IMG/VR virus record: IMGVR_UViG_3300012933_000343
Coordinates: 1 to 53,779 of that record
DNA length: 53,779 nucleotides
Strand: one strand, 5' to 3'
DNA from: a virus
Positions within the stretch are counted from its first letter, which is position 1. Each line of letters starts with the position of its first letter. This document shows, one piece after another, positions 12,802 to 39,297 of the stretch. A program made the translations under genes and the position numbers. Below the pieces are notes generated by a model that ran no database searches, was not told the DNA's origin, and worked only from the letters and a program-made list of their open reading frames with translations.

Positions 12802-12995
12802 CTGCCTCAGCGGCTTACCCGGGCGATGAAGACGTGTTTTGCCATTTGGTCCCGATCGGGGACTTTAAGGAGCATGAGCTATCGCGCGCTTGCTGGTGCC
12901 ACCCACGCCCCGACGAGCAAGTGCCAGAGGTGATGGTCCACAACGCCATGGACCAGCGCGAGCGGCTTGAGCGCGGGGAGATTTACATCCAATGA
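12798..12995 (+). CDS. Hypothetical protein (65 aa)
   Basis: Track ORF 12690..12995 trimmed to MTASAAYPG... (ATGA overlaps on both sides); C..H...C.CH cluster. Confidence 0.5.
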   Translation: MTASAAYPGDEDVFCHLVPIGDFKEHELSRACWCHPRPDEQVPEVMVHNAMDQRERLERGEIYIQ

Positions 12996-14569
12996 GCGCG
13001 CCCGTTTCGCCAGCCGTCATGCTGGACATGATCTCCAAGGAGCAAGCTCGCCGCAGGGCGGGCGCTTCGCTCTACGAGTTCGTCAAGCAGTCTTGGCACG
13101 TCATGGAGCCCGGCGTCCCGTTCGTCCCGAGCTGGCACATCGAGGAGATCTGCGAGCACCTGGAGGCTGTAAGCTGCGGCGACATTCAGCGGCTGCTGAT
13201 CAACATCCCGCCGCGCCACTCCAAGTCCACCATCGTCTCGGTGGCCTGGTGCGCCTGGGAGTGGATCGCCAATCCAGAGCAGAAGTTCTTGGCCGCGTCG
13301 TACTCGGGCACGCTGTCCATCCGGGACAACTTGAAGGCCCGTCGCCTGATCCAGTCGCCTTGGTACCAGGACCGCTTTGGGCATATGTTCAACCTTGCGG
13401 GCGACCAAAACGCCAAGCAGCGCTTCGAGAACGACTGCACCGGCTACCGAATCGCCACCTCGGTGGGCGGTACCGCAACGGGTGAGGGCGGCTCGCGTTT
13501 GATCCTTGACGACCCGCACGGCGCGCAGGACGCGCAGTCCGAGACCATGCGAGAGACCGCGCTCGAGTGGTTCGACATGGTCTGGTCGACCCGGCTGAAC
13601 AACCCCAAGACCGACGCCATGGTCACCGTCATGCAGCGCCTGCATGAGAAGGACATCAGCGGTCACATCCTGAACGACATCGGCGGCTGGGAGCACATCT
13701 GCATCCCTGCCGAGTGGGACGGCAAGAAGCGCAGCACGGTGCTCGGCTCCTACGACCCGCGCACGGTCAAGGGCGAGCTGATCTGTCCGGACCGATTCGG
13801 TGAGGCCGAGATCACCAAGCTCAAGCAACTGCTGGGCACCTACGGCTCGTCTGGCCAGCTGCAGCAGGACCCGTCTCCCACCGAGGGCGGCATCTTGGCC
13901 ACCAAGCACTTTCAGCTTTGGCAGTCGGTTACCCGCCTGCCGCAGTTCGAGTACATCCTGCAAAGCTACGACACCGCGTTCACCGAGCGCACCACGGGCG
14001 ACCCGACCGCCTGCACCGTCTGGGGCGTGTTCTCGCACCGAGGCCTGCGCAACGCGATGCTGCTGGACGCCTGGGACGAGCACCTGTCTTACCCGGACCT
14101 GCGCGCCCGCGTCATCCGGGACTGGACGTCGCAGTACGGCGCGGACGCCAGCCCCAAGGCGGGGATGCCGACCAAGGGCAGGCGGCCCGACCGTTTGCTG
14201 GTCGAGGCGAAGGCCTCGGGGCAGTCGCTGCTGCAGGACCTGCGGTTGGCCAAAGTCCCGGCCGTTGGCTACAATCCCGGGCAAGCGGACAAGGTTTCGC
14301 GGGCGCACCAGGCAGCGCCAACGCTGGAGCTGGGGTTGTTGTGGATTCCCGAGTCCACCAAAAACCCCGGGCAGCCAGTCAGTTGGGCGGCCACCTTTCT
14401 GAAGCAGATCGCCAAGTTCCCTGTCGCAGAGCACGATGACTACGTGGACACCTTCACCCAGGCAGTCATTTTTCTGAAAAACGATGGCTGGTTCGAGCTG
14501 CCGCAAGCAAGCGACGCGGACGAGCCAAGACCGTACAAGAAGGAAAGGTCGAATCCTTATGCCGCCTGA
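12992..14569 (+). CDS. terL: Terminase large subunit (525 aa)
   Basis: ATPase centre LLINIPPRHSKST (Walker A-like) and LILDDPH (Walker B), followed by a nuclease half; size and position after TerS fit. Confidence 0.9.
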   Translation: MSAPVSPAVMLDMISKEQARRRAGASLYEFVKQSWHVMEPGVPFVPSWHIEEICEHLEAVSCGDIQRLLINIPPRHSKSTIVSVAWCAWEWIANPEQKFLAASYSGTLSIRDNLKARRLIQSPWYQDRFGHMFNLAGDQNAKQRFENDCTGYRIATSVGGTATGEGGSRLILDDPHGAQDAQSETMRETALEWFDMVWSTRLNNPKTDAMVTVMQRLHEKDISGHILNDIGGWEHICIPAEWDGKKRSTVLGSYDPRTVKGELICPDRFGEAEITKLKQLLGTYGSSGQLQQDPSPTEGGILATKHFQLWQSVTRLPQFEYILQSYDTAFTERTTGDPTACTVWGVFSHRGLRNAMLLDAWDEHLSYPDLRARVIRDWTSQYGADASPKAGMPTKGRRPDRLLVEAKASGQSLLQDLRLAKVPAVGYNPGQADKVSRAHQAAPTLELGLLWIPESTKNPGQPVSWAATFLKQIAKFPVAEHDDYVDTFTQAVIFLKNDGWFELPQASDADEPRPYKKERSNPYAA

Positions 14570-16895
14570 CACCCCGTCAATTTTTTCTGTCTCGCCGTAC
14601 TCGCGCGCAATTGCACGCGAAATGTACCCGGGACAGCGCGGCCAAAACGACCAACAAGACGCAGCCAGGCACATGCTGGCCGCTGGCACGATGGCGCGCA
14701 AGTACGGCCCAAGAGTTGCCGAGCTGGCGGGCAAGGCGCACGAATACGTCGAGTCGCCACTTAAGGCAATGATGATGATGCTGGGCCGTGGCCAGATGCC
14801 ACCGGACTACGAGCAAGACCTGCACAACAACGCGCTGGGAATCGAGATGGCCAATCGCGCCCAGTCCCAGCGTGATTTGGAGGACTTGGTCCAATCGATG
14901 GCTGAGCGATCGGCAACCTCGCAAACACAGGGTCGCCCCTGGGTGAACAAAGCAAAGGGCGGCGCAGTGACCGCCCCAAGGAGTGCCAATATGGCTGACG
15001 ATTTAAACCGCCCGTTCATCGGCTACCGCTCCGCTGGTCGCCGCCCCGAGTCCCAGCAAGACCGCCGTGCCTCCGCCGACGCTCCGCTGGCTGCGCTGCG
15101 CGGGATGGTGTCCGGTGTGCTTGGCGCTCCCGGCGACATCGAGTCGCTGATCCGCATGCTGCCCGGTCTGTCCGAGCAGACTGTGCTGCCGACCAGCGAG
15201 GATGTGCGCGGCCGTTTGCCTGGACGCTCTCTGGAGTCGACACCGGTGGGCCGAGCCGCAACGGAGCTTGGCACGCTTGGCGGCGGTTTCTACACTGGCC
15301 CAGGCTCCCCATTGCGCGCCGTCGCTGCGCTTCCGTCGGCGGTGTCGCGCGCTGGGCGTGACTTTGCGTTGTCCGCAGGTCAGCCTGCCGTGAACGTGGT
15401 TAAGCCTAATGGTGCGCGATCACTGACCGAGATGTTTTCGAAGTATGCAGCACCAGAATCAACCGGCAAACAGGCCGCACCAGGCTCGCACGCTGGATTA
15501 TTTAACCAATGGTTGACGGAGCAACCAGAGGATGCAATCACCGCAATCAATCGCAACATTTTTTCACGCAAGAGCGGCCCAAAATACGACTACGAGCTTC
15601 GCATGATGCCGATTGAAAAAGCAAAACCCACCCAGGTTGGCGAAAATTACCTTAACGATTCAAGTCGTTACACAGCCAAAGAACTCAAGACAAAAGATAT
15701 CTACAGCATTCATCGTACAAACGATGCGCTGCCAATCATCCTTGACGAGGCTGGCAACATTTCCGACGGTAACCACCGGCACGCGGCAGCCGTCCTTAAT
15801 GGCGAGAATGTCATCCCGGCTTTGGTGCCTGTTGGGGAAGGCAGCGGAAAAGTTATTAACCTACCTTCAAATGTTGATAAGCCCGGATTCTCCCAAGGCG
15901 GCCAGGTTCGCGGCTACGCCGAGGGCGGAATCGTCAGCAGTATTGATCCGCCAGCTCGCGGCTACGACTGGCAAGCAATTGCCGATGCGGCCAAAGTCTC
16001 GGGCTTGCCAATCTCCAGCTTCATGTCAAGAAATTGGGACAAAATAATGGGCGGGATGTACAACTTGGCCCCAGCTCCCGTTGTTCAGGTCCCAACCACA
16101 ACCACGCCAAACAACAGCAATTACAGCGGCGGCAGTGATGGGGATTCAACAGGAAACAATTTTGGTTTGGATGGCATCGGCCTAAATACTGGTGGCCTTA
16201 ACACGAGCGGAATTCAAGGCGTTGTCAGCCAGGCCATGATGGACGCCGCTCAAATCGCAATTGGCCAAGTGGCCAATGCCATAAGCACGCCAAACACCCC
16301 ATCTCAACAAGCGGCGATTAGCGTTTCAGACTTGGGGGTAGCGTTGGATGGGACAACGGGCCCAAGCTCAGCAACGGGCATCGGTGTGGGTAGTACTGCC
16401 GGAATTAACGCCATGGACGCCATGAGCGACGCAGCCTCGGCGGCAGGTAACGGTGGCACCGCCGGTGGTGTTTCCGGTGTTGGTGTTGGCAGCTCGGACG
16501 GCGTAAACGGAATGGATGCATCCAGCGACGCAGCCTCGGCGGCATCAAGCGACGGCGACGCAGCCTCGGCTGACGGCGACGGAGGTTCGAGCTCCGGAAC
16601 TGGCGACGGTGGCGGTTCAAGCGCGGGAGACGGCGGTGGCTCAGGTGATGGCGGAGGTAGTTCGGGAGGGGATGGTGGCGGCGATGGCGGAGGCGGCGAT
16701 GGCGGAGGTTGGGCAAAAGGCGGTCAAATCAAACTGAGAAACTTGGATAAAAAATACGCCAAATCATTAACAAAGCGAAAAACCAAGTTTTTTGCAGGCG
16801 GCCAAGTAAGTGGTGCGAATTTCCCCACATACGACTTCGACCCGGATAGAATCGACGCAATTGTGGGCGAGCTCCACGCAATGAACGCAGGCTGA
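14559..16895 (+). CDS. Large virion-module protein with a central ParB/sulfiredoxin-like domain and a Gly/Asp/Ser-rich C-terminus (778 aa)
   Basis: Track ORF 14484..16895 trimmed to MPPDTPSIF... ParB/Srx pattern IEKAKPTQVG ... PIILDEAGNISDGNHRHAAAVLNGENVIPALV at about 15603-15835. N-terminal D..RH ... HE ... DLHNN..G motif series. GDS low-complexity tail at 16380-16715. Five x-G-G-x-[VI] motifs. Confidence 0.6.
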   Translation: MPPDTPSIFSVSPYSRAIAREMYPGQRGQNDQQDAARHMLAAGTMARKYGPRVAELAGKAHEYVESPLKAMMMMLGRGQMPPDYEQDLHNNALGIEMANRAQSQRDLEDLVQSMAERSATSQTQGRPWVNKAKGGAVTAPRSANMADDLNRPFIGYRSAGRRPESQQDRRASADAPLAALRGMVSGVLGAPGDIESLIRMLPGLSEQTVLPTSEDVRGRLPGRSLESTPVGRAATELGTLGGGFYTGPGSPLRAVAALPSAVSRAGRDFALSAGQPAVNVVKPNGARSLTEMFSKYAAPESTGKQAAPGSHAGLFNQWLTEQPEDAITAINRNIFSRKSGPKYDYELRMMPIEKAKPTQVGENYLNDSSRYTAKELKTKDIYSIHRTNDALPIILDEAGNISDGNHRHAAAVLNGENVIPALVPVGEGSGKVINLPSNVDKPGFSQGGQVRGYAEGGIVSSIDPPARGYDWQAIADAAKVSGLPISSFMSRNWDKIMGGMYNLAPAPVVQVPTTTTPNNSNYSGGSDGDSTGNNFGLDGIGLNTGGLNTSGIQGVVSQAMMDAAQIAIGQVANAISTPNTPSQQAAISVSDLGVALDGTTGPSSATGIGVGSTAGINAMDAMSDAASAAGNGGTAGGVSGVGVGSSDGVNGMDASSDAASAASSDGDAASADGDGGSSSGTGDGGGSSAGDGGGSGDGGGSSGGDGGGDGGGGDGGGWAKGGQIKLRNLDKKYAKSLTKRKTKFFAGGQVSGANFPTYDFDPDRIDAIVGELHAMNAG
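16380..16715 (+). repeat. Coding low-complexity / imperfect tandem repeat (Gly-Asp-Ser-Ala rich)
   Basis: agcgacgcagcctcggcggca occurs at 16425 and 16524 (99-bp offset), a third partial copy at 16557, then (GAT/GAC)GG(C/T)GG(n) runs encoding GDGGGSS...GDGGGDGGGGDGGG. Confidence 0.8.
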
Positions 16896-16900
16896 ACAAT

Positions 16901-19426
16901 ATGGCAGATCAACTCTTGAACGACGGCGAAGACGAGAATCCATCTGACGACGCACAGCGCGGCGAGTCTGTCTCGCTCCCTGGCGACGACGAGATGGACA
17001 TCCACGACACTGATGACGGCGGCGCGATGGTTCGCATCGGCGACGACCGAGATGTGGTGGACAAGAAGGCCCACTTCGCCAACATTGTGGAAGAGGTCGA
17101 CCAAGGCATGCTGGACGACGCCGTGGTGGACTTGATCGACAAGATCGAGCGCGACAAAGACGCTCGCTCCAAGCGCGACAAGCTCTACGAAGAAGGCCTG
17201 CGCCGCACGGGCCTCGGCGACGACGCCCCCGGTGGAGCTCAGTTCTCGGGCGCGAACAAGGTTGTGCACCCCATGCTGGTCGAGGCCTGCGTTGACTTCA
17301 GCGCCCGCTTCATGAAAGAGGTGTTCCCGCCTTCTGGCCCCGTGAAGTCCAAAGTGCTGGGCACCGTGGATAAGGAAAAGCTGGACAGGTCGCGCCGCAA
17401 GACCGATTTCATGAACTGGCAGACCACCGAGCAAATGCCCGAGTTCCGTGGCGAGCTCGAGCAGCTCTCGACGCAGCTGCCCTTGGGTGGCGGCCAGTAC
17501 CTCAAGCTCATGTGGTCGCCCCAGTGGCGTCGCCCCACCTCCGAGTTCATCGCCATCGATGACATGTACCTGCCGTTTGCGGCCACTAACTTTTACTCTG
17601 CCGAGCGCAAAACGCACGTGCAGTACGTGACCAAGGCTGAGTTCAACCGCCGCGCCAAGGCTGGCATGTACATCGACGTGGACCTGGGCTCACCCGATCA
17701 GATCGATTTCAGCCGCGCGACCAAGGCCAACGACAAGATCGAGGGCCGCGAGGACACCAGCTACAACGAGGACGGGTTGCGCACGATCTTTGAGATTTAC
17801 ACGCATCTGGACTTTGGTGACGGCATGGAGCCGTACATCATCAGCATCGACAAGTCCACGCGCCAGGCGCTGAGCTTGTATCGCAACTGGGAGCCAGAGG
17901 ACAATCGCCGCCGCGAGCTGGAGTGGATTGTCGAGTTCCCGTTTGTGCCATGGCGCGGTGCGTACCCGATTGGCTTGACCCACATGATCGGCGGCCTGTC
18001 TGGCGCGGCCACCGGCGCTTTGCGTGCATTGCTGGACTCGGCCCACATCCAAAACATCCCCACGCTCTTGAAACTAAAGGGCGGCCCTGGCGGGCAGACG
18101 ATCAACCTGCAGCCGACCGAGGTGGTCGAGATCGAGGGCGGCGCGCTTGTTGACGACATTCGCAAGCTGGCCATGGCGCTGCCGTTCAACGGCCCGTCCC
18201 CCACGCTGTTCCAGCTGCTCGGCTTCTTGGTCGATGCTGGCAAGGGCGTCGTGCAGACCTCGTTCGAGAAGCTGGCCGATCAAAACGCCAACGCACCTGT
18301 CGGTACCACGCTGGCGCTGATCGAGCAGGGCATGGTGGTTTTCAGCTCCATTCACTCGCGCTTGCACAACTCGATGGAGCGGGTGTTCAAAATCCTGCAC
18401 CGCATCAACAGCGCATACTTGACCGAAGAGGACATCAAAGCGGATGCCGCCGGCCTTGACGTCAAGCCAGAGGACTTCGACGGTCCGATGGACGTGATTC
18501 CGGTCAGCGACCCCGCCATCTTCAGCGAGGCTCAGCGTTTTGCCCAGGTCACGGCCGTGCAGCAACGTTCAGCGATGTTGCCGCAGATGTACGACGCGCG
18601 CAAGGTTGAGGAGATGTTCCTGCGCAACCTGAAGCTCAACCCTGGCGACGTGCTCAACCCACAGCCGGGCGAGGACGATGTTGACCCGGTAAGTGAAAAC
18701 GTGGCCGCATCGCTTGGCCGCCCTGTTTTTGTTCTGCCAAAGCAGGACCACATCGCGCACATCCAAACGCACCTGGCGTTTTTGAAGTCGCCTTTGTTTG
18801 GCTCAAACCCGGCCGTGGTGAAAACCTACCTGTACCCGATGGCTCAGCACCTGCGCGATCACTTGCTGAACTTCTACCTCACGCAAGCTCATGAGGCCGT
18901 TCAGCGTGCCGAGTCCGAGGGTTTGATCACGGACGAGGCCAGCCAGCAGGTGAAGGTGATTGTTCGCGTGCAGCAGGTCATCGAGCAGCAAATGGCGCAG
19001 TTCGCCCAAGAGCTGGCCCAGATCGACCAGGCCGCCCAGCAGTTTGCGCCTCAGCCGCCGCAGATGCCGCAGGACAAGAGCCTGGAAGTTGCCCAGATCA
19101 ACGCTCAGGTGCGTCAGGCCGACAGCCAGCAGCGCGCTCAGTCCGATGCCGCACGCTTGCAAGTCGAACAGGCCAAGCTCTCGCAAAAGCAGCAGGCAGA
19201 CCAGCAAGCCTTGGCCGACAAGCAGCAAGCGCGCATGGAAGAAATGCAGGTCGCTCAGTTGCAAGAGGCCATGGAGAACGAGCGAACAGCCGCCGAGATC
19301 GACGCGCGTTTGCAAATGAACTCGGACGACAACGCCACGGCCATGCGCCTGGCGGCCGCAGAGATTGCCTCCGGCGAAAAGGTCGCCGTGAGCACAGGCA
19401 CGGGCATCAACCCGGGCACACGTTAA
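16901..19426 (+). CDS. Portal protein (841 aa), probable
   Basis: Large ORF downstream of TerL; acidic N-terminus; long Gln-rich coiled-coil C-terminus reminiscent of a P22-type portal barrel. Assigned from position and size, not from a diagnostic motif. Confidence 0.6.
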   Translation: MADQLLNDGEDENPSDDAQRGESVSLPGDDEMDIHDTDDGGAMVRIGDDRDVVDKKAHFANIVEEVDQGMLDDAVVDLIDKIERDKDARSKRDKLYEEGLRRTGLGDDAPGGAQFSGANKVVHPMLVEACVDFSARFMKEVFPPSGPVKSKVLGTVDKEKLDRSRRKTDFMNWQTTEQMPEFRGELEQLSTQLPLGGGQYLKLMWSPQWRRPTSEFIAIDDMYLPFAATNFYSAERKTHVQYVTKAEFNRRAKAGMYIDVDLGSPDQIDFSRATKANDKIEGREDTSYNEDGLRTIFEIYTHLDFGDGMEPYIISIDKSTRQALSLYRNWEPEDNRRRELEWIVEFPFVPWRGAYPIGLTHMIGGLSGAATGALRALLDSAHIQNIPTLLKLKGGPGGQTINLQPTEVVEIEGGALVDDIRKLAMALPFNGPSPTLFQLLGFLVDAGKGVVQTSFEKLADQNANAPVGTTLALIEQGMVVFSSIHSRLHNSMERVFKILHRINSAYLTEEDIKADAAGLDVKPEDFDGPMDVIPVSDPAIFSEAQRFAQVTAVQQRSAMLPQMYDARKVEEMFLRNLKLNPGDVLNPQPGEDDVDPVSENVAASLGRPVFVLPKQDHIAHIQTHLAFLKSPLFGSNPAVVKTYLYPMAQHLRDHLLNFYLTQAHEAVQRAESEGLITDEASQQVKVIVRVQQVIEQQMAQFAQELAQIDQAAQQFAPQPPQMPQDKSLEVAQINAQVRQADSQQRAQSDAARLQVEQAKLSQKQQADQQALADKQQARMEEMQVAQLQEAMENERTAAEIDARLQMNSDDNATAMRLAAAEIASGEKVAVSTGTGINPGTR

Positions 19427-19854: not shown

Positions 19855-20250
19855 ATGAGCGAAGCATTGATCGAGGCTTTTCCGGATGCCGACCCAGGCA
19901 TCACCCCATTTGGAAGCCGTGTCTTGGTGCAAATCCGAAGCCCCAAGAGCAAGACCGCCTCTGGCATCATTCTTGACAGCGGCTCCCGCGACACCGAAAA
20001 GTGGAACACGCAAGTGGCCAAGGTGATCAACGTCGGCGCGCTGGCCTTCAAGAACCGAAACACCATGGACTCCTGGCCAGAGGGCAGCTGGTGCAAGCCG
20101 GGCGATTACGTTCGTGTGGCCAAGTACGGCGGCGATCGCTGGGAGGTTCCCATGCCCAACGGCGAGTCCGCCCTTTTCGTGATCTTCAACGATCTGGACA
20201 TCATTGGCCAGGTGACCGGCGACCCGCTGGCCATTCGTGCGTTCATCTGA
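19855..20250 (+). CDS. GroES/Cpn10-like co-chaperonin (131 aa)
   Basis: ITPFGSRVLVQIRSPKSKTASGIILDSG...AKVINVG ... GDYVRVAKYGG ... FVIFNDLDIIGQV aligns by eye with E. coli GroES (IRPLHDRVIVKR.EVETKSAGGIVLTGS ... GDIVIFNDGYG ... ESDILAIV). Confidence 0.7.
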   Translation: MSEALIEAFPDADPGITPFGSRVLVQIRSPKSKTASGIILDSGSRDTEKWNTQVAKVINVGALAFKNRNTMDSWPEGSWCKPGDYVRVAKYGGDRWEVPMPNGESALFVIFNDLDIIGQVTGDPLAIRAFI

Positions 20251-20261
20251 GGAGCGGCACC

Positions 20262-20678
20262 ATGAACCACGAACAGATCGCCCGCGTTTGCCATGAAGTC
20301 AACCGCGCTTATTGCGAAGCCCTGGGCGACATGAGTCAGCCAGCCTGGAAAGATGCACCGCAGTGGCAGCGCGACAGCGCCATGATGGGCGTCAAACTCC
20401 ACAGCGACAACAACGTCGGCCCCGAGGCCAGCCACGAGAGTTGGATGGCGCAGAAGGTTTCCGAGGGTTGGGTGTACGGCCCCACCAAAGACCCCAAGGC
20501 CAAGACGCACCACTGCATCGTGCCATTTGACACGCTGCCCCGCGAGCAGCAAGCCAAGGACTTCATCTTCCGCGCTGTGGTGCACGCTTTGCGTCCAGTG
20601 GCACCTGCTGAAGACGACTTCCCTCTTGGCAAAGCCTGCGACCTCTCCGGCGAAGGCAATTGCGAAGCCTGCCAATAA
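20262..20678 (+). CDS. RyR (ryanodine-receptor repeat) domain protein (138 aa)
   Basis: Track ORF 20001..20678 trimmed to MNHEQIARV... SHESWMAQKVSEGWVYGPTKDPKAKTHHCIVPFDTLPREQQAKD matches the HE.W...GW.YG....K.HP.LVP...L....K..D RyR signature. C-terminal C-x7-C-x2-C. Confidence 0.8.
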   Translation: MNHEQIARVCHEVNRAYCEALGDMSQPAWKDAPQWQRDSAMMGVKLHSDNNVGPEASHESWMAQKVSEGWVYGPTKDPKAKTHHCIVPFDTLPREQQAKDFIFRAVVHALRPVAPAEDDFPLGKACDLSGEGNCEACQ

Positions 20679-20702: not shown

Positions 20703-21677
20703 ATGCCAATTCTGAAAGAAGACGACGAGCGTCCCGACAATGAGGAAATTGTCATCGTTGAGGACAAGCCCCGTGCCGAAGATCAAGACGACGACCGGCG
20801 CTTAAGCGAGAACGAAGACGACGACGCCCCGGGCGACAGCAACGATCCCGAGCGCAAGGCCATCCAAGAGCGACGCCGACTGGAAAAGATCGAGCGCAAG
20901 AAGCGCCGCGACGAGGCCATCAGCCGCGACAAGCTGGAGCTGAGTTTCCTGCGCAAGCGCAACGACGAGCTCGAGCGCCGCATCGGCAGCGTTGAGCAGC
21001 GCACGCACCAAGCCGACCTGTCTCAGTTCGACGCCCAAATCAACGGCGCTCGTCAAGAGGCAGAGATGGCTGAGCGCGTGATTGCTAAGGCCGTGGCGGC
21101 TGGCAACGGTGAGGACGTGACGCAGGCGATGCGGTACCGCGACCAAGCCATGCAAAAGGCGCAACAGTTGGCGTTTGCAAAGCAGCAAGCAGCCCAGCAG
21201 CGCCAGACAAAGCCAGCGGACGGCATGGACGACATGACCATGCACTACGCCAAGGAGTTCATTCAGGACAACCCTTGGTATGACATGCAGGGCAAGGACG
21301 AGGACAGCGCAATCGTGCTGGCCATCGACGGTGCTTTGATGCGCGAGGGCTTCAAGCCCGACAGCGAAGAGTACTGGGACGAGCTGCGCGACCGCGCCGC
21401 CCGCCGTTTGCCCGAGCGTTTCAAGCAGACCGAGCGTCGCAACGACCACGGCGAAGAGCGCGCAGCCCGCGAAGAGCCGCGCCAGCAACGCCAGACCCGT
21501 GGTGGCCCAACGATCGGCTCTGGTCGTGAGCACGCTCCAACATCGACCCGCACTGAGGTTTATGTGAGCCCCGAGCGAAAGCAGGCATTGATTGATGCTG
21601 GCGTTTGGGACGATCCTGTTTTGCGTCAAAAATACGTGAAACGCTACGCCGAATATGACCGCAATAATCGGGCTTGA
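20703..21677 (+). CDS. Scaffolding protein, probable (324 aa)
   Basis: Highly charged, coiled-coil-prone sequence (acidic N-terminus, RRRLEKIERKKRRDE..., Q/A-rich middle) between portal and capsid genes. Confidence 0.55.
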   Translation: MPILKEDDERPDNEEIVIVEDKPRAEDQDDDRRLSENEDDDAPGDSNDPERKAIQERRRLEKIERKKRRDEAISRDKLELSFLRKRNDELERRIGSVEQRTHQADLSQFDAQINGARQEAEMAERVIAKAVAAGNGEDVTQAMRYRDQAMQKAQQLAFAKQQAAQQRQTKPADGMDDMTMHYAKEFIQDNPWYDMQGKDEDSAIVLAIDGALMREGFKPDSEEYWDELRDRAARRLPERFKQTERRNDHGEERAAREEPRQQRQTRGGPTIGSGREHAPTSTRTEVYVSPERKQALIDAGVWDDPVLRQKYVKRYAEYDRNNRA

Positions 21678-23887: not shown

Positions 23888-24517
23888 GTTGGCACACCCT
23901 TTAAAATTGGGCCAAAAGGGTTGTTTATGCCATACAAAATCGACGTAGTTGGAATATACAAAATCGTTAACAAGGCCACGGGGCATTGCTACGTTGGCCA
24001 ATCTCAATATGTCAAAAAAAGGCTTAAAGAGCATTTCAGGCTGCTTCGTTTAAACAAGCACCCAAACGGGCACTTGCAAAATTCTTACAACAAATACGGG
24101 CTTGAGAATTTTTACGGCTCAATTGAAATTGAGTGCGATAGCACCGTTGATTTAGACCAGCTTGAGGAGATGTTTATTTCTGGGGCTGCTTGGTTTGATC
24201 AACCCACTGTTTACAACATTGCTGATTTTGCTAAAGCTCCAATGCGTGGAAAAACGCATAGTGCCGAGGTAAGAATGCGAATCAGCGCAGGAAGAAACGC
24301 AACAACATTTGACTACAGAAGTCCGGAATATCGGGAAACTTTGTCAAGAGCGCAAATGGCACGCTTTCATTCAGACCAAAAATTTATGGCAAAAGTAAAG
24401 TTTATATTGGACAATTCCGACCTGTCATATGCTGAGCGTGGAAGACGTCTTGGTGCCGACACAAGCTCAGTGCGAAGGATTGCGCTGAGGTATCAACATC
24501 TCAAAGGAGTACCGTAA
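23888..24517 (+). mobile_element. Free-standing homing-endonuclease gene cassette (GIY-YIG) inserted between the capsid terminator and the next structural gene
   Basis: The segment is markedly AT-richer than its surroundings (hand counts of 35-48% GC per 60 nt against about 60% around it). It starts right after the terminator and ends with TAATG overlapping the next gene. Confidence 0.6.
23927..24517 (+). CDS. GIY-YIG family homing endonuclease (196 aa)
   Basis: VGIYKIVNKATGHCYVGQS...RLKEH...N..LQNSYNKYG..NF (GIY-YIG core), followed by NUMOD-like HSAEVRMRISAGR. Confidence 0.88.
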   Translation: MPYKIDVVGIYKIVNKATGHCYVGQSQYVKKRLKEHFRLLRLNKHPNGHLQNSYNKYGLENFYGSIEIECDSTVDLDQLEEMFISGAAWFDQPTVYNIADFAKAPMRGKTHSAEVRMRISAGRNATTFDYRSPEYRETLSRAQMARFHSDQKFMAKVKFILDNSDLSYAERGRRLGADTSSVRRIALRYQHLKGVP

Positions 24518-25634: not shown

Positions 25635-26162
25635 ATGGGCTGCACATACGTCAAAGAGTTCGACTTCGGAACCAAAAAAGCCGATGGCGGCGTGGTGAAA
25701 TACGCCAAGGGTGGCAAGGTTCAAAACCCTGGCATGCTGGCCGACAACAGCAATCTGGGCATCAAAGGCAACAAGAACCCTGGCATCAAAGGCGCAAAGC
25801 CTGTGGCTCCAGACCTGCCCACACTGAAGCTGGCCAAGGGCGGCGCTTGCAAGTCCGCCTACGCAGAGGGTGGCAAGGTCCACAGCGATGCGGCGATGGA
25901 CAAGAAAAGCATGGTCAAAGCTGTGCACAAGCATGAGAAAGCGCTGCACAAGGGCGAGCCTTTGACCAAGCTGGCCAAGGGCGGCAAGGTTCCACGCGTT
26001 GAGGCTATGGAAAAGCGCGAGATGGCCGAGACTCCAAGCATGCGCCGCGAGTCGGCCATGAGCAGCCGCAAGGTGCAAGCTCCCGTGCGCAAAATGGTCC
26101 CCGTCTCTCCCCGTGAGCCGATGTTGGCCATGAAAAAAGGCGGTAAAGCCTCGATGTGCTGA
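25635..26162 (+). CDS. Lys-rich basic protein with repeated A-K-G-G-K-V motifs (175 aa); possible internal or DNA-associated virion protein
   Basis: Track ORF 25620..26162 trimmed to MGCTYVKEF... (aaggag SD 6 nt upstream). Motifs ADGGVV, YAKGGKV, LAKGGAC, YAEGGKV, LAKGGKV, MKKGGKA. Confidence 0.55.
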   Translation: MGCTYVKEFDFGTKKADGGVVKYAKGGKVQNPGMLADNSNLGIKGNKNPGIKGAKPVAPDLPTLKLAKGGACKSAYAEGGKVHSDAAMDKKSMVKAVHKHEKALHKGEPLTKLAKGGKVPRVEAMEKREMAETPSMRRESAMSSRKVQAPVRKMVPVSPREPMLAMKKGGKASMC

Positions 26163-32008: not shown

Positions 32009-32469
32009 ACCTGAGTGACCTGAACCCATTGGCCGCGATTGGCGGCAAACTGATCGATCGTTTCTTGCCTGACCCAGCGGCCGCAGCAGCCGCAAAGCAA
32101 GAGCTGGCACAGATGCAGGAGAACGGCGAGCTGGCGCGGATGGCCAACGAGACCAAGGTGCTGGAGATTGCCAACGCCAACACCGACAGCGCTCGGAACA
32201 TGAACGCCACAGTGCAAGAGTCCGTCAACGCATCGTGGTTGGCCAAAAACACCGCCTACGCGCTCGACATTGGGATTGTTGCGGCCACCATTTTTTTGGC
32301 TTGGTTTGCCTTCATTAAAGGCGTTCCGGAAGCCAACAAAGAACTTGTTTACATGGCGCTTGGCTCTCTCATCACCATGTCTGGTACGGTTTTGAACTTC
32401 CACCGTGGAAGTTCTCAAGGCTCCAAGGATAAGGGTAGTGAAATCCAAAAACTGAAGGACACGAAATGA
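32005..32469 (+). CDS. Holin, 3-TM GTA-release type (154 aa)
   Basis: Track ORF trimmed to MNLSDLNPLAAIGGKLIDRFLPDP... (ATGA overlap). The N-terminal IGGKLIDRF.PDP motif and C-terminal hydrophobic helices match the 'holin of 3TMs for gene-transfer release' family as I recall it. It is directly coupled to the endolysin. Confidence 0.7.
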   Translation: MNLSDLNPLAAIGGKLIDRFLPDPAAAAAAKQELAQMQENGELARMANETKVLEIANANTDSARNMNATVQESVNASWLAKNTAYALDIGIVAATIFLAWFAFIKGVPEANKELVYMALGSLITMSGTVLNFHRGSSQGSKDKGSEIQKLKDTK

Positions 32470-32978
32470 AAGCTAACTTCGACTCCGCGCTGAAAGCCGT
32501 TTTGCACCACGAAGGCGGCTTTGTGAACCATCCCGCCGACCCAGGCGGCATGACCAACCTTGGTGTGACCAAGAAGGTCTGGGAGGAGTGGCTCGGCCAC
32601 CCTGTTGACGAGAAAGCCATGCGTGCGCTGACACCTGAGATTGTGGGCCCAATGTACAAGGCCAAGTACTGGGACAAGATAAAAGGCGACGAGCTGCCGG
32701 CTGGTGTGGACTACGCCGTTTTTGACGCCGCCGTCAACAGCGGTCCAGGCCGTGCGGCAAAGTGGTTGCAGGCTTGCGTTGGCGTTGAGCCCGATGGCGG
32801 TATTGGCCCCAAGACGCTGGCTGCCGTGGCATCTTTTGACCCTGCCAACTTGGTTGAGGACTACGGCAAGCGCCGCCTGTCGTTTTTGATGGACTTGCAG
32901 AACTGGGACACATTTGGCAAAGGCTGGAGCCGTCGCGTCACAGAGGTGGCGTCCGTGGCCGGCAACATGACCGCCTGA
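32466..32978 (+). CDS. Endolysin: glycoside hydrolase family 108 muramidase with a PG_binding_3 domain (170 aa)
   Basis: LHHEGGFVNHPADPGGMTNLGVT (GH108 catalytic EGG.. motif) and ...PDGGIGPKTLAAV... (peptidoglycan-binding domain). Confidence 0.92.
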   Translation: MKANFDSALKAVLHHEGGFVNHPADPGGMTNLGVTKKVWEEWLGHPVDEKAMRALTPEIVGPMYKAKYWDKIKGDELPAGVDYAVFDAAVNSGPGRAAKWLQACVGVEPDGGIGPKTLAAVASFDPANLVEDYGKRRLSFLMDLQNWDTFGKGWSRRVTEVASVAGNMTA

Positions 32979-33068: not shown

Positions 33069-33698
33069 ATGTACACGATGACGTACAGCAGCTTGCTGGA
33101 AGATGTGCGCCGCTACCTTGAGCGGGGCTTTACCGCTGAGAGCGACCAGATCGTTTATGAGCAGCTGCCGCGCCTGGTCACACTGGGCGAGCGCCGCATC
33201 TCTCGTGAGCTCAAGATTCAGGGCTTCATTCGCGCCGTTCAAACCCCACTGCAAATTGGCCTTGCCACCTACCGCAAGCCCGACCGTTGGCGCGACACGA
33301 TCAGTATGACGCTGGACGGACAGCCGATTTTTGCCCGCGCCTATGAGTATTGCCGAAGCTACTGGCCGGACGAGGCCGAGACGGCTGTTCCGCAGTTTTA
33401 TGCGGACTACGACTACAACCACTGGCTGATCACGCCAACGCCTATTGCTGCGCAGACGCTTGAGGTTCTCTACTACGAGCAGCCGCGCTTTTTGGGCGAG
33501 GACTTCCAGACCAACTGGCTGACCGAGTACGCGCCCGACTTGCTGCTGTACGCCACATTGCTGGAGGCCACGCCGTTCCTGAAGAATGACGGGCGCATCG
33601 GCACCTGGCAACAGATGTACGACCGCGCGGCCCAGGCGCTCAACGGCGAGGACCTCAAGAAAATCATGGACCGAAGCGCCCAAAGGACTGAAGCATGA
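33069..33698 (+). CDS. Virion structural protein (209 aa), possibly adaptor or tail-associated
   Basis: Track ORF; coupled (ATGA) to the following fibre-like gene. Confidence 0.45.
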   Translation: MYTMTYSSLLEDVRRYLERGFTAESDQIVYEQLPRLVTLGERRISRELKIQGFIRAVQTPLQIGLATYRKPDRWRDTISMTLDGQPIFARAYEYCRSYWPDEAETAVPQFYADYDYNHWLITPTPIAAQTLEVLYYEQPRFLGEDFQTNWLTEYAPDLLLYATLLEATPFLKNDGRIGTWQQMYDRAAQALNGEDLKKIMDRSAQRTEA

Positions 33699-36723: not shown

Positions 36724-36947
36724 TCATCACGATGCCAACCGGTATGGAGCTGCTTGACTGGGCGTCTCAGATCATCATCGACCTGGATGCCTACGGCTCC
36801 TTTGGTCGTTTGGACGACGCAAGCCACTGGCAGGACTGGGGCATGCAGTTTTTGAACAACACAACGATCGGCCGCAATTTGCCGATTCCTTACGGATTTA
36901 CTGACTGGCGAGAATGGGCAGAGCGTTTGGTGGGCTCGTTGTCATGA
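36720..36947 (+). CDS. Hypothetical protein (75 aa)
   Basis: Track ORF; ATGA overlaps on both sides. Confidence 0.5.
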   Translation: MIITMPTGMELLDWASQIIIDLDAYGSFGRLDDASHWQDWGMQFLNNTTIGRNLPIPYGFTDWREWAERLVGSLS

Positions 36948-37387
36948 AATACATCGGAACTCAACGCGAGAATGAGGCGATTGAATGGGCCAAAAATGTG
37001 CTCAACATCGAAGGCCCGACTGGTTTTTGCCGTGCATTGTCTGCAGTTGATGCCGCCGGGGAATTTGTTTTTGTTGTGGTGCTTTCAAACTTCACAGAGA
37101 CAAACGTGGACATGCACACTTCCGCCAAGCCTGGTGCCAAATGGGCCACGCCGCGCGCTGCCGTTGAGATGTTTCGAGGCGTTTTTGGGTATGCTTTTGA
37201 TCATTTCCAGGTGCAACGCGTGACAGGCCTGGTGCGTGCAAAAAACACAGCTGCTCGTCATTTTGACGAGCACATTGGATTTCAGCTCGAGGGCGTGATG
37301 CGCCGGGCTTTTAAGGACGACGATCTTTGCGTTTACGGTTTCTTGCGCGAGGATTACATTTCACACAGATGGAATCGGAGTAAATAA
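36944..37387 (+). CDS. GNAT-family N-acetyltransferase (147 aa)
   Basis: Track ORF 36914..37387 trimmed to MKYIGTQRE... RVTGLVRAKNTAARHFDEHIGFQLEGVMRRAF...D..VYGFLREDY matches the RimJ/RimL-type GNAT core (motif A plus the C-terminal beta strands). Confidence 0.7.
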   Translation: MKYIGTQRENEAIEWAKNVLNIEGPTGFCRALSAVDAAGEFVFVVVLSNFTETNVDMHTSAKPGAKWATPRAAVEMFRGVFGYAFDHFQVQRVTGLVRAKNTAARHFDEHIGFQLEGVMRRAFKDDDLCVYGFLREDYISHRWNRSK

Positions 37388-39297
37388 TGGACAAACAAAC
37401 AATCATGGCGCTGGCGGCCAACAACCCTCAAGTCGCGCAAGCCGCAGACATCATTGAGGCCCGAATTTCCAACATGCCCGGCATCACCGAAGAGATGATT
37501 GACCAGTTGGTGGCCACCCTTGAGTACGTGCTGCAAAACCCGCAAAAGTACCCAGAGGTTCGCGAGGCCGCCATTCAAGCTGGTTTTGGCTCAGAGCAAG
37601 ATTTCCCCGCTGAGTTTGACCCAACGCTGATTGTCTCCATGCTGGTGGCGTTGTACGAAGTTCAAGCTCGTTACCAAGGGGGGCAGTCGCAGGCATTTGC
37701 CCGGGGCGGTCTTGCCCAGGCCGCCAGCCGAGTTGCTGCAGCTGGCCGTGGTGGTGACAGCATGTTGGCACACATCAATCCGCGAGAAGCAGCCATGCTG
37801 GCGCGTATGGGCGGCAGCGGTACCGTCAATCCAACCACAGGCTTGGTTGAGTTCAAAGGAGGCATCGGCAAACTTATTGCTGCTGTTGCTCCTATAGCGT
37901 TGTCGATTTTGGCTCCAGGCATCGGTACCGCAATCGGCGGCTTTATTTCTGGCGGCGCGTTGGCTGGAACTGCGGCCAGCATGCTTGGCGGCGCAGCGAT
38001 CGGTGGCCTGTCCTCTGCTGCCGCAGGCGGTGATCCACTGAAGGGCGCGCTCGGCGGCGCGTTGGGGGCAGGCGCTGGCGGTGCCCTTGGTGGTGCTATC
38101 GGCGATGCAACCGGCATGACGCTGAGCAACACGGCGCAAAACGTGCTGGGCAGCTCTTTGATTGGCGGCGCTCAGAGTGCGGCCAGCGGGGGCGACTTCC
38201 TAACCGGCGCTGTGCAAGGCGGTGTCGGCGGCTATGCTGGCAGCGCGCTTTCTGGGGCTGCTGGGGGCTTTGATGGCAAGCTCGGCGCTGGGTTGCAGAC
38301 CGCAGGCCAGCAGTTTGGCAACGCGCTGACCATGGGGGCTGATGCAAAGCAGGCGCTCACGCAAGGAGCGCTTTCTGGCTTGGCTGCGGCTTATGCCGCC
38401 CCATCGGCACCAGCGCCAAAGTCAATCTACGACATCACGCCCGCCGAGACTGGCGGTATTGGCCTAAAGGCACCGTCCGACCTGGTGATCGAGGGCTTGA
38501 AAGTTCCTCATGTCAACACAACTAGCATGCCAGAAAGCGGCCTCAGCACAAATTACAGCCTGACCGGTGGAAACACGCCAACGTTCAGTGGGCCCGACAG
38601 CTTCACGCCGGATTACTCGCTGGCTGGACCATCAATGACTGACTCGGCATCTGCTGAGCCTTACACTGGAACAGGCCTCAAAGCATCCCCGCTGAACACG
38701 ATTGCGGCGCAAACAACTGACGCGACCTCTTTGGTGCCCAAAGCACCAGCAGGAACGGCCAACAAGGGATTCAGCCTTGGCAACGCCGCATCAATGCTGC
38801 CTTTGCTCAGCATGTTTGGCAGCGCGCAGACGCCGGAAGAAGTGCAGCAAGTTGTGGCCGGTATGACGCCCGAGCAGCAGGAATACTTCAACCGTCCGAT
38901 GCGAAGCTGGAACTGGGACACACTCAGCGCGGCGGCAAAAATGCAAAACCTGCCCGTCGGTAGCTACATTGCTCGCAACTGGGACAAGGTTGGCGGCGGC
39001 ATGTATGACCAGTCAACTGAAGAGCCTAAGGCCTTTGCCCGTGGCGGCGCTTTGACCCGATTGGCCCGTGGCGGCGGCTCTGGCCGTGATGACACCATCA
39101 ACGCCAAGCTGTCGGACGGAGAGTACGTGATGGACGCCGAGACCGTGGCGCTGTTGGGCGATGGCTCAACGGATGCAGGGGCTCGCCGTTTGGACGAGAT
39201 GCGGGCTAAAATCCGTCAACACAAAGGCAAATCGATGGCCCGGGGCAAGTTCAGCGCGAACGCCAAATCGCCGTTGGCATATTTGAAAGGCGCTTAA
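37387..39297 (+). CDS. Internal virion / ejection-type protein with a Gly-rich membrane segment (636 aa)
   Basis: Long Gly/Ala hydrophobic stretch (GKLIAAVAPIALSILAPGIGTAIGGFISGGALAGTAASMLGGAAIGG...). Motifs FARGG (twice), LARGG, DSMLAHINPREAAMLARMGGSGTVNPTTGLVEF and LSDGEYVMDAETV. Position in a block of four large late ORFs. Confidence 0.55.
   Translation: MDKQTIMALAANNPQVAQAADIIEARISNMPGITEEMIDQLVATLEYVLQNPQKYPEVREAAIQAGFGSEQDFPAEFDPTLIVSMLVALYEVQARYQGGQSQAFARGGLAQAASRVAAAGRGGDSMLAHINPREAAMLARMGGSGTVNPTTGLVEFKGGIGKLIAAVAPIALSILAPGIGTAIGGFISGGALAGTAASMLGGAAIGGLSSAAAGGDPLKGALGGALGAGAGGALGGAIGDATGMTLSNTAQNVLGSSLIGGAQSAASGGDFLTGAVQGGVGGYAGSALSGAAGGFDGKLGAGLQTAGQQFGNALTMGADAKQALTQGALSGLAAAYAAPSAPAPKSIYDITPAETGGIGLKAPSDLVIEGLKVPHVNTTSMPESGLSTNYSLTGGNTPTFSGPDSFTPDYSLAGPSMTDSASAEPYTGTGLKASPLNTIAAQTTDATSLVPKAPAGTANKGFSLGNAASMLPLLSMFGSAQTPEEVQQVVAGMTPEQQEYFNRPMRSWNWDTLSAAAKMQNLPVGSYIARNWDKVGGGMYDQSTEEPKAFARGGALTRLARGGGSGRDDTINAKLSDGEYVMDAETVALLGDGSTDAGARRLDEMRAKIRQHKGKSMARGKFSANAKSPLAYLKGA

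Follow-up and report, generated by a model that had tools for sequence, protein, structure and literature searches.

What marks a phage protein for packing into the virion and injection into the host is known in detail for few systems, such as the T4 capsid targeting sequence, SPP1 gp7 and MuF. The question is raised again by a viral stretch of 53,779 nucleotides (IMG/VR record IMGVR_UViG_3300012933_000343, positions 1 to 53,779, hereafter the window), which has ~59% GC, is without a close isolate relative and belongs to a large, uncultured, podovirus-like freshwater lineage; its capsid gene gives the sole match to a database phage (MW202545, 77% nucleotide identity). A preliminary description of this DNA had noticed that a short motif, given as [F/Y/L/W/M]-A-[K/R/E]-G-G-x-[V/I/L], recurs in about 14 copies in three late proteins, and had suggested that it could be a maturation-protease cleavage site, a capsid or portal targeting signal or a DNA-condensing repeat. 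Window counts, shuffles and comparison with relatives agree that it is a genuine, conserved short linear motif limited to these three late proteins, and we tentatively read it as a docking element. The carriers are the following.

14559..16895, plus strand: pre-portal polyvalent protein, 778 amino acids (aa) from the start used in the preliminary description; the longest open reading frame (ORF) starts at 14484
25635..26162, plus strand: 175-aa basic protein, isoelectric point (pI) 10.0, 16.6% Lys, built of units each ending in a motif copy
37387..39297, plus strand: tape-measure-like ejection protein, 636 aa, with a match to the tape-measure family phrog_3547 over residues 542-592

A conserved short motif limited to three late proteins

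Each of the 14 strings originally listed was found in the translations of these genes. In a set of 63 hand-curated predicted proteins of the window (simple ORF calling), A[KRE]GG occurred ten times in the three carriers (1589 aa) and never in the 60 other proteins (14.7 thousand amino acids, kaa), and the longer [FYLWM]A[KRE]GG nine times in the carriers and never in the others. Composition-preserving shuffling within each protein placed the motif above expectation (P ≤ 0.002 per protein and pattern, except for the strict seven-residue pattern in the ejection protein, with one copy and P = 0.008); the motif is therefore not explained by richness in Gly and Lys. Synonymous codons differ among the 14 copies, which indicates selection on the peptide and led us to reject a repeat maintained at the DNA level.

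Relatives of the window were represented by 80 viral contigs fetched by the portal protein, an independent anchor, and 26 fetched by the protein downstream of the ejection protein (~106 in total), whose ORFs were assigned to window proteins by BLASTP. Across these contigs the pattern [FYLWM][AS]xGGx[VILA] was ~70 to 100 times denser in the three carrier orthologue groups than in other orthologue groups, a fold-enrichment that is descriptive and not a formal P value, since the pattern was defined post hoc and the loci are phylogenetically non-independent. The 80 portal-anchored loci had 3.69 copies/kaa in orthologues of the pre-portal and 175-aa proteins (2.53 and 13.0 copies/kaa, respectively) versus 0.034/kaa in other groups (204 kaa), and the 26 ejection-module loci had 1.73 copies/kaa in ejection-protein orthologues versus 0.026/kaa in other groups (78 kaa). 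Portal (67 kaa) and terminase (22 kaa) orthologues had not one seven-residue copy, and fibres had 0.45 copies/kaa compared with 2.5-13/kaa in the target proteins.

The motif is also kept in homologues of the individual carriers. Among orthologues of the 175-aa protein it was present in 29/29, and each of the 120 database homologues listed for the pre-portal protein had at least one copy, with 243 copies seen versus 6.7 expected from shuffling. Twelve ORFs that carried the strict motif and had no BLAST match all lay immediately upstream of a portal gene; the motif therefore persists where the rest of the protein was replaced. The small multi-motif protein was present in 22 of 26 relatives that had enough flanking sequence, and in MW202545 the pre-portal and small proteins have positional counterparts rich in the motif, alongside an ejection-protein counterpart with copies of the general pattern (e.g., GYASGGCV).

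Position-specific counts gave a core of Phi-A-x-G-G-x-V, where Phi is F/Y/L/M/W: Ala was found in 87-97% and Val in ~90% of copies (Leu/Ala in the ejection protein), and the x positions were free. Gly or Lys often precedes the motif, and x-G-P/A-G/N often follows it. The K/R/E residue that the preliminary description had included is not part of the core, as this position tracks the composition of each protein: the acidic pre-portal protein (pI 5.35) has E/D/A/Q/H there, the basic one K and the ejection protein R. This speaks against contact of the motif itself with DNA. No description of the motif was found in Pfam, NCBIfam or the literature, and literature on DUF6496, DUF6973 and the peptide strings SDSIPA and LSDGEFV held nothing relevant; as far as we found, the motif is undescribed and its context, polyvalent proteins and a tape-measure module, is known.

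The motif accompanies a module of tape-measure proteins

The preliminary description had overlooked that the motif is part of a module found widely among tape-measure proteins (TMPs). With tblastn, the C-terminal module of a protein of phage DSL-LC04 was found in 373 phage records, nearly all listed matches falling under tape-measure annotations, in phages of Mycobacterium, Gordonia, Arthrobacter, Burkholderia, Vibrio, Pseudomonas and Pelagibacter. Phi-A-x-G-G-x-V lay directly upstream of the core GPGTxTSDSIPAxLSxGEFV in 5/5 inspected TMPs, and a second copy followed 10-25 residues downstream of the core in 4/5. At the corresponding place the window has LARGGGS-GR-DDTINAKLS and the TMPs have FASGGHVRGPGTSTSDS, LATGGRVTGPGTSTSDS, YAGGGFLSGPGTGRSDS and others, and an alignment profile matched Douge gp16 (E = 7.8e-8). 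The window core DDTINAKLSDGEYVMDAETV is homologous to the GPGTxTSDSIPAxLSxGEFV..A..V of the siphophage module (JBD30 gp46 ~1015-1085, Douge gp16, Burkholderia phage KS9 gp13), with the motif directly upstream in both, whereas the window lineage differs in having the motif also in two proteins without this hook core. The older and wider home of the motif would be the C-terminal module of tape-measure/ejection proteins.

The authors of the JBD30 study proposed, on the basis of an AlphaFold2-multimer prediction, that residues 1022-1066, which correspond to this module, are a 'hook' anchoring the TMP inside the baseplate (PMC11445458), and drew an analogy with T5 pb2*, in which the last 42-43 residues lodge between subunits of the hub (PMC11445458, PMC10038345). 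The pb2* C-terminus arises after cleavage at R1127, and in both T5 and lambda, enzymes yet to be identified cut the TMP close to its C-terminus (PMC10038345).

The window phage itself appears to be of the short-tailed type, with an ejection protein stored in the capsid. An SU10-type adaptor (PF24175, E = 1.6e-25) at 33069-33698 and the ejection-protein gene order indicate a short tail, so that the ejection protein would have the module without being a tape measure; no tail-tube, tape-measure, sheath or chaperone gene was found in the window.

Arrangement of the motif in the three carriers

The ejection protein consists of a helical N-terminal region, a motif copy, the INPREAAMLARMGGSGTVNPTTGLVEF module, a Gly/Ala-rich hydrophobic region, an RNWDK mini-domain, two motif copies, the TMP-type hook core and a basic C-terminus. 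The module after the first copy reads MLAHI(N/T)P.EA..L...GG.GT.NP.TGL.E[FY] in this architecture, which is the same in Caulobacter phage GB2A gp065c and in the 'TMP' of phage DSL-LC04; identity to the GB2A 'TMP' is 61%.

37696..37716, plus strand: copy FARGGLA, kept as QAFARGGLA in orthologues
37762..37854, plus strand: module MLAHINPREAAMLARMGGSGTVNPTTGLVEF, also in DSL-LC04, Methylophilales phage Venkman and two Manatee Spring phages
38908..39006, plus strand: mini-domain WNWDTLSAAAKMQNLPVGSYIARNWDKVGGGMY, common to the pre-portal protein
39034..39081, plus strand: pair FARGGAL-TR-LARGGGS, directly upstream of the hook core
39088..39168, plus strand: hook core DDTINAKLSDGEYVMDAETVALLGDGS, homologous to siphophage TMP GPGTxTSDSIPAxLSxGEFV..A..V

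The carriers had been regarded as otherwise unrelated, a view that does not hold. By BLASTP, the pre-portal and ejection proteins have in common a segment of ~33 aa, ..W..AAK..LP..S[FY][MI].RNWDK[IV].GGMY, for which no family annotation was found and which AlphaFold2, run on the ejection-protein copy, predicted as a confident helical mini-domain (predicted local distance difference test, pLDDT, 79-87). Moreover, the C-terminal VSPREPMLAMKKGG of the 175-aa protein is similar to INPREAAMLARMGG in the ejection protein (INPRE..ML...GG module). VSPREPMLAMKKGG looks like a shortened copy of the module MLAHINPREAAMLARMGGSGTVNPTTGLVEF, that is, a second short motif common to carriers.

The pre-portal gene lies between the genes for the large terminase (12992-14569) and the portal (16901-19426). 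Its product comprises DUF6973, a motif copy, a ddrB-ParB-like region (DGNHRH), a motif doublet, the RNWDK helical mini-domain, a Gly/Ser/Asp low-complexity region, two further copies and a C-terminal helix tail; DUF6973 was matched in Pfam at E = 1.6e-8, and ddrB-ParB around DGNHRH at E = 0.033, below threshold.

14949..14969, plus strand: copy KAKGGAV, directly after DUF6973
15888..15935, plus strand: doublet FSQGGQV-RG-YAEGGIV, 9-residue spacing, after the ParB-like region
15963..16061, plus strand: mini-domain YDWQAIADAAKVSGLPISSFMSRNWDKIMGGMY, homologous by BLASTP to 38908-39006
16710..16730, plus strand: copy WAKGGQI, seen in the translation
16788..16892, plus strand: FFAGGQV and tail SGANFPTYDFDPDRIDAIVGELHAMNAG, a conserved C-terminal signal with an amphipathic-helix pattern

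In pre-portal proteins, copies follow DUF6973 and the ParB-like region and surround ART-PolyVal, and doublets with copies 8-10 residues apart are frequent. Irrespective of the domains that lie upstream, each of the 120 listed homologues has its last motif beginning 27-44 aa (median 35) before the C-terminal end, and this motif is followed by a conserved tail, ...[FY][DN]P..[IV]D.[IL]V..L..., with an amphipathic-helix pattern. Positional relatives combine ART-PolyVal, PcfJ, DUF6973 and GP88 in varying ways. Two parts of the window protein gave PDB sequence matches: the Gly/Ser/Asp/Ala low-complexity stretch at ~16120-16710 (residues ~520-717), which ends in (GDGGG)n and precedes the last two motif copies, matched artificial Gly-Ser linkers spuriously, and the DUF6973 region (14559-14900) matched, at E = 0.43 and with no significant stretch, a Bacteroides fragilis type VI secretion system effector fusion (9uu0), which hints at a toxin- or effector-like nature of this N-terminal domain.

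With several unrelated effector-type domains in a virion-gene setting, this product is, as judged from sequence, a polyvalent protein sensu Iyer et al. 2017. For polyvalent proteins, which occur in phages and conjugative elements and include phage P1 DdrB, packaging and injection were predicted (Iyer, Burroughs, Anand, de Souza and Aravind 2017; PMC5512222), and it was proposed that they are processed, P1 DdrB being cleaved before packaging; the same paper contains no Gly-Gly motif or C-terminal tag ('glycine' and 'linker', 0 occurrences). The pre-portal protein is like them in its large multi-domain make-up, its virion gene module and its ART-PolyVal/PcfJ/DUF6973/ddrB-ParB-like content, and differs in that no MuF domain or MPTase peptidase was detected in it. 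It also recalls SPP1 gp7 and Mu gpF (MuF), whose genes likewise adjoin the portal gene and which likewise have variable effector domains; by analogy, this gene order suggests a portal-linked incorporation. Unlike MuF proteins, however, it has no MuF domain, its gene is upstream and not downstream of the portal gene, and its conserved part is a C-terminal tag of ~45 aa.

The 175-aa protein starts at 25635; a Shine-Dalgarno sequence, AAGGAG, with a 6-nt spacer and the MGCTYVKEF with which most homologues begin support this start. Its family comprises at least 537 sequence clusters, across which the N-terminus MGCTYVKEFDFG (window 25635-25670) is near-invariant. It had no match in Pfam, PHROGs, NCBIfam or PDB sequences, and none by tblastn in isolate phages. 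The protein is predicted to be intrinsically disordered: in an AlphaFold2 model built on an 88-sequence alignment (mean pLDDT 53.5, predicted template modelling score 0.15), only three short helices stood apart from disorder.

25680..25697, plus strand: degenerate copy ADGGVV, seen in the translation
25701..25721, plus strand: copy YAKGGKV, column kept in the family (Y23, G26, G27 ≥ 90%)
25830..25850, plus strand: copy LAKGGAC, end of the mobile unit '..LGIKGNKNPGIKG.KPVAP.LPTLKLAKGG'
25860..25880, plus strand: copy YAEGGKV, G79 and G80 invariant in the family
25971..25991, plus strand: copy LAKGGKV, A114, G116 and G117 invariant in a 20-sequence alignment
26103..26153, plus strand: C-terminal unit VSPREPMLAMKKGGKAS with variant copy MKKGGKA, resembling INPREAAMLARMGGSG of the ejection protein

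Sequence comparison describes a family of 4-6 motif-terminated units, which are inserted, deleted and permuted with boundaries that coincide with motif copies (homologues P0049, P0080, P0035, P0094 and others), suggesting recombination between motif-coding repeats. The unit 'GFKG..LGIKGNKNPGIKGSKPVAP.LPTLKLAKGG', for instance, stands before or after the HKHEK unit depending on the homologue. In MW202545 (29302-30651, minus strand) the counterpart has 449 aa and ~10 loosely motif-like copies (KLKKGGKVA, YAKGGKVA, YATGGAIP, FAKGGKVP, FKKGGST, FATGGNVV, FKKGGKVKKFAEGGTE), from which it follows that motif number can expand greatly. Family members have Gly-Cys right after Met, and a C-terminal Cys is common (..MC; ..AKC in MW202545; window 26154-26159). 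Two known families were considered for the 175-aa protein and rejected: the KGG stress-protein repeat (PF10685), the protein having no Pfam match at E ≤ 0.01, and DUF6496 (PF20106), which does not match the window protein and is an extra C-terminal extension in some family members.

A possible docking role and its alternatives

The reading that we put forward, tentatively, is that the motif is a docking element that folds on binding, in proteins whose way out of the virion is the portal-tail channel; the three carriers are probably packed in the virion and ejected into the host. Conservation on both sides of the Gly-Gly fits a motif with two-sided contact, and segments bound by a partner are typically well conserved without folding on their own. 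Consistently with this, the motif and hook region of the ejection protein had pLDDT < 50 beside the confident mini-domain, and the hook core in isolation was equally below 50 (C-terminal 142 aa; all structure predictions were of single chains). Furthermore, the C-terminal copy and helix of the pre-portal protein are kept while DUF6973, ParB-like, PcfJ, ART-PolyVal and GP88 domains swap, which is the behaviour of an address or anchor tag. Mechanistically, the Phi and Val side chains around the flexible Gly-Gly might insert in a pocket, or add a strand, on a partner, which could be a ring (the lumen of portal, adaptor or nozzle) or the hook module of the ejection protein. In TMPs and ejection proteins one copy precedes, and another often follows, the core GPGTxTSDSIPAxLSxGE[FY]V, and in this lineage the motif is also present in two more proteins. 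Tethering would then join the three proteins as one internal ejectable assembly, with the multivalent small protein as glue, lined up to exit ahead of or with the DNA. Docking lies close to the targeting candidate of the preliminary description; of its other two candidates, cleavage is less favoured and DNA condensation disfavoured.

Several points weigh against docking. That the polyvalent and small proteins are in the virion and are ejected, which partner they have, and the binding itself are inferred and not observed. The chains of the JBD30 (8rk3) and Douge (8zdo) structures contain the module, with only the last 33 and 42 residues modelled, respectively, so that the motif is unseen, and the 'hook anchor' idea for JBD30 is itself model-based speculation. 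A location at domain boundaries and close to the C-terminus would suit a processing site just as well. Finally, phage SU10, whose adaptor is of the same PF24175 family as that at 33069-33698 and whose five ejection proteins were found experimentally, has no motif copy at all. The motif as a general requirement of podophage ejection proteins was rejected on this ground (SU10 gp20-24 have no copy); it therefore belongs to the hook-module lineage, not to ejection in general.

A stronger form of the docking idea, which we regard as doubtful, is that Phi-A-x-G-G-x-V together with the ~25-aa C-terminal helix forms a portable 'ejection address', both necessary and sufficient for loading and for delivery with the DNA. 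A polypeptide bearing it would be loaded onto the portal or the ejection-protein assembly, and effectors and the glue-like protein would have gained the motif by mimicking the docking motif of TMPs and ejection proteins.

Cleavage may coexist with docking, although we hold it to be unlikely. A phage or host endopeptidase cutting at or next to the Gly-Gly would separate the polyvalent domains, trim the C-terminal address helix, free the C-terminal part of the ejection protein and cut the small protein into basic peptides of 10-50 aa. Gly-Gly is a common viral cleavage signature, used by adenain, Ulp/SUMO proteases, coronavirus PLpro and African swine fever virus pS273R, and the motif resembles it as a hydrophobic-preceded Gly-Gly of virion-interior proteins. 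The adenain/Ulp sites, (M/I/L)-X-G-G-X with the cut after the second Gly, have their hydrophobic residue at P4, however, and the likeness to this consensus drawn in the preliminary description proved to be out of register: here Ala occupies P4 (87-97%), the hydrophobic residue stands one position further out, at P5, and Val at P2' (~90%) is as conserved as the P side, which is unusual for a pure P-side cleavage signal. Copies do lie at the domain boundaries of the pre-portal proteins, with one always before the short C-terminal tail in the listed homologues, and the small protein resembles beads on a string whose unit boundaries are at the motif; the strong conservation of its inter-motif segments does not separate docking from processing. 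On the other hand, 46 of the 120 listed pre-portal homologues have only the C-terminal copy, although they are of ~700 aa and multi-domain, so that cutting between domains is not the general role of the motif. There are precedents for processing in polyvalent proteins, in P1 DdrB (PMC5512222), and in the T5 and lambda TMPs (PMC10038345), but the known T5 cut follows Arg, not Gly-Gly. As for an enzyme, no peptidase family and no cysteine protease was detected in the window proteins searched against Pfam, PHROGs and NCBIfam, several of which are without any annotation, and a host enzyme is possible; that the head module has no recognisable protease, as first noted, thus held in the Pfam and PHROGs searches. 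The 324-aa protein at 20703-21677 was considered as a head protease and rejected, its composition being that of a charged helical scaffold.

A partner-less structural element, in which the Gly-Gly is a hinge or beta-turn that separates modules, keeps chains extended for channel passage and spreads by repeat recombination, seems rather improbable: the motif is predicted as coil, copies often form doublets 8-10 residues apart and deletions and insertions of small-protein units are bounded by copies, but a mere hinge needs no aromatic residue, Ala and Val at fixed spacing, does not explain the exclusion from other Gly-rich proteins such as fibres, and is at odds with the selection on the peptide seen at synonymous sites. 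It is likewise improbable that the motif is a capsid-interior or scaffold targeting peptide, which would bind the inner face of the HK97-fold capsid or the scaffold in procapsid assembly and serve for loading only, not ejection. The motif is multivalent, lies in disordered segments, is limited to predicted internal proteins and forms part of a C-terminal tag that behaves like an address while upstream cargo swaps, and its Gly and hydrophobic composition resembles encapsulin cargo-loading peptides. With these and with the T4 capsid targeting sequence, however, the likeness is functional only, all being short portable peptides in disordered regions that address unrelated cargo to a compartment of viral origin or kind; there is no sequence kinship with the T4 signal, which is N-terminal and removed by gp21. 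Moreover, the motif is common in siphophage TMPs, proteins that are built into the tail without ever being inside the capsid; this speaks for a partner in the channel or tail rather than in the capsid wall. A DNA-binding or condensing repeat of basic internal proteins, with minor-groove contacts of the AKGGKV type, is highly improbable: it suits the very basic 175-aa protein, whose copies are mostly AKGGKV and which may bind DNA by overall charge, but the basic residues are outside the core, the x positions of the acidic polyvalent protein are mainly E/D/A/Q and L/A/Q, and motif-bearing TMPs lack basic residues there.

Other likenesses were considered and rejected. Mimicry of the GroES mobile loop came into question because the phage encodes a Cpn10 homologue near the portal gene; the loop of this homologue, KTASGIIL, has a different register, and the motif is without the hydrophobic triplet. 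RTX-like calcium-binding nonapeptides were dismissed despite the 8-10 spacing, there being no GxD and no tandem array. T7 gp6.7 and gp7.3 resemble the small carrier as small, basic, Gly-containing virion-module proteins, the T7 record annotating gp6.7 as injected into the host, but there is no detectable homology, and their KARAGGKKS and KSAFGGKK are out of register, so that they were not accepted as motif carriers.

The seven-residue motif marks three classes of predicted injected proteins: a polyvalent effector, a small disordered basic protein and a pore- or tape-measure-like ejection protein. Should it serve for docking or as an address, it would give an experimental handle on cargo selection and on assembly of the ejection apparatus, a sequence rule to predict injected effectors in metagenomic phages, and possibly a tag for phage-delivered engineered proteins. 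Were the ejection address to prove true, it would amount to a cargo-selection code for phage-injected proteins, usable for payload engineering, and would explain the conserved module of hundreds of TMPs. A cleavage site would instead point to an unidentified processing enzyme common to very diverse phages.

Neighbouring genes

Genes around the carriers include several other products with recognisable domains. Just downstream of the portal gene lies a GroES/Cpn10 homologue (19855-20250; PF00166, E = 9.7e-9; mobile loop KTASGIIL), with a counterpart in 68 ORFs across related loci; a co-chaperonin in the head module recalls T4 gp31. Between it and the scaffold gene is a RyR-domain protein (~20250-20678, ORF listed as 20001-20678; PF02026, E = 1.4e-10; phrog_5154, E = 3.9e-46). 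Directly after the major capsid gene, a GIY-YIG homing endonuclease (23921-24517), with a single counterpart ORF across the 80 loci, looks like a recent mobile insertion. A GNAT acetyltransferase gene (36914-37387) ends at the start codon of the ejection gene, with base 37387 in common, and has counterparts in 9 ORFs of the 26 loci; its product may be another effector that is injected, or may modify the ejection proteins. Among the tail genes, a GH108 and PG_binding_3 endolysin (32466-32978) is followed by the SU10-type adaptor (33069-33698), an arrangement that, at the level of sequence, points to a tail element of Kuravirus type, the genome being otherwise unrelated.

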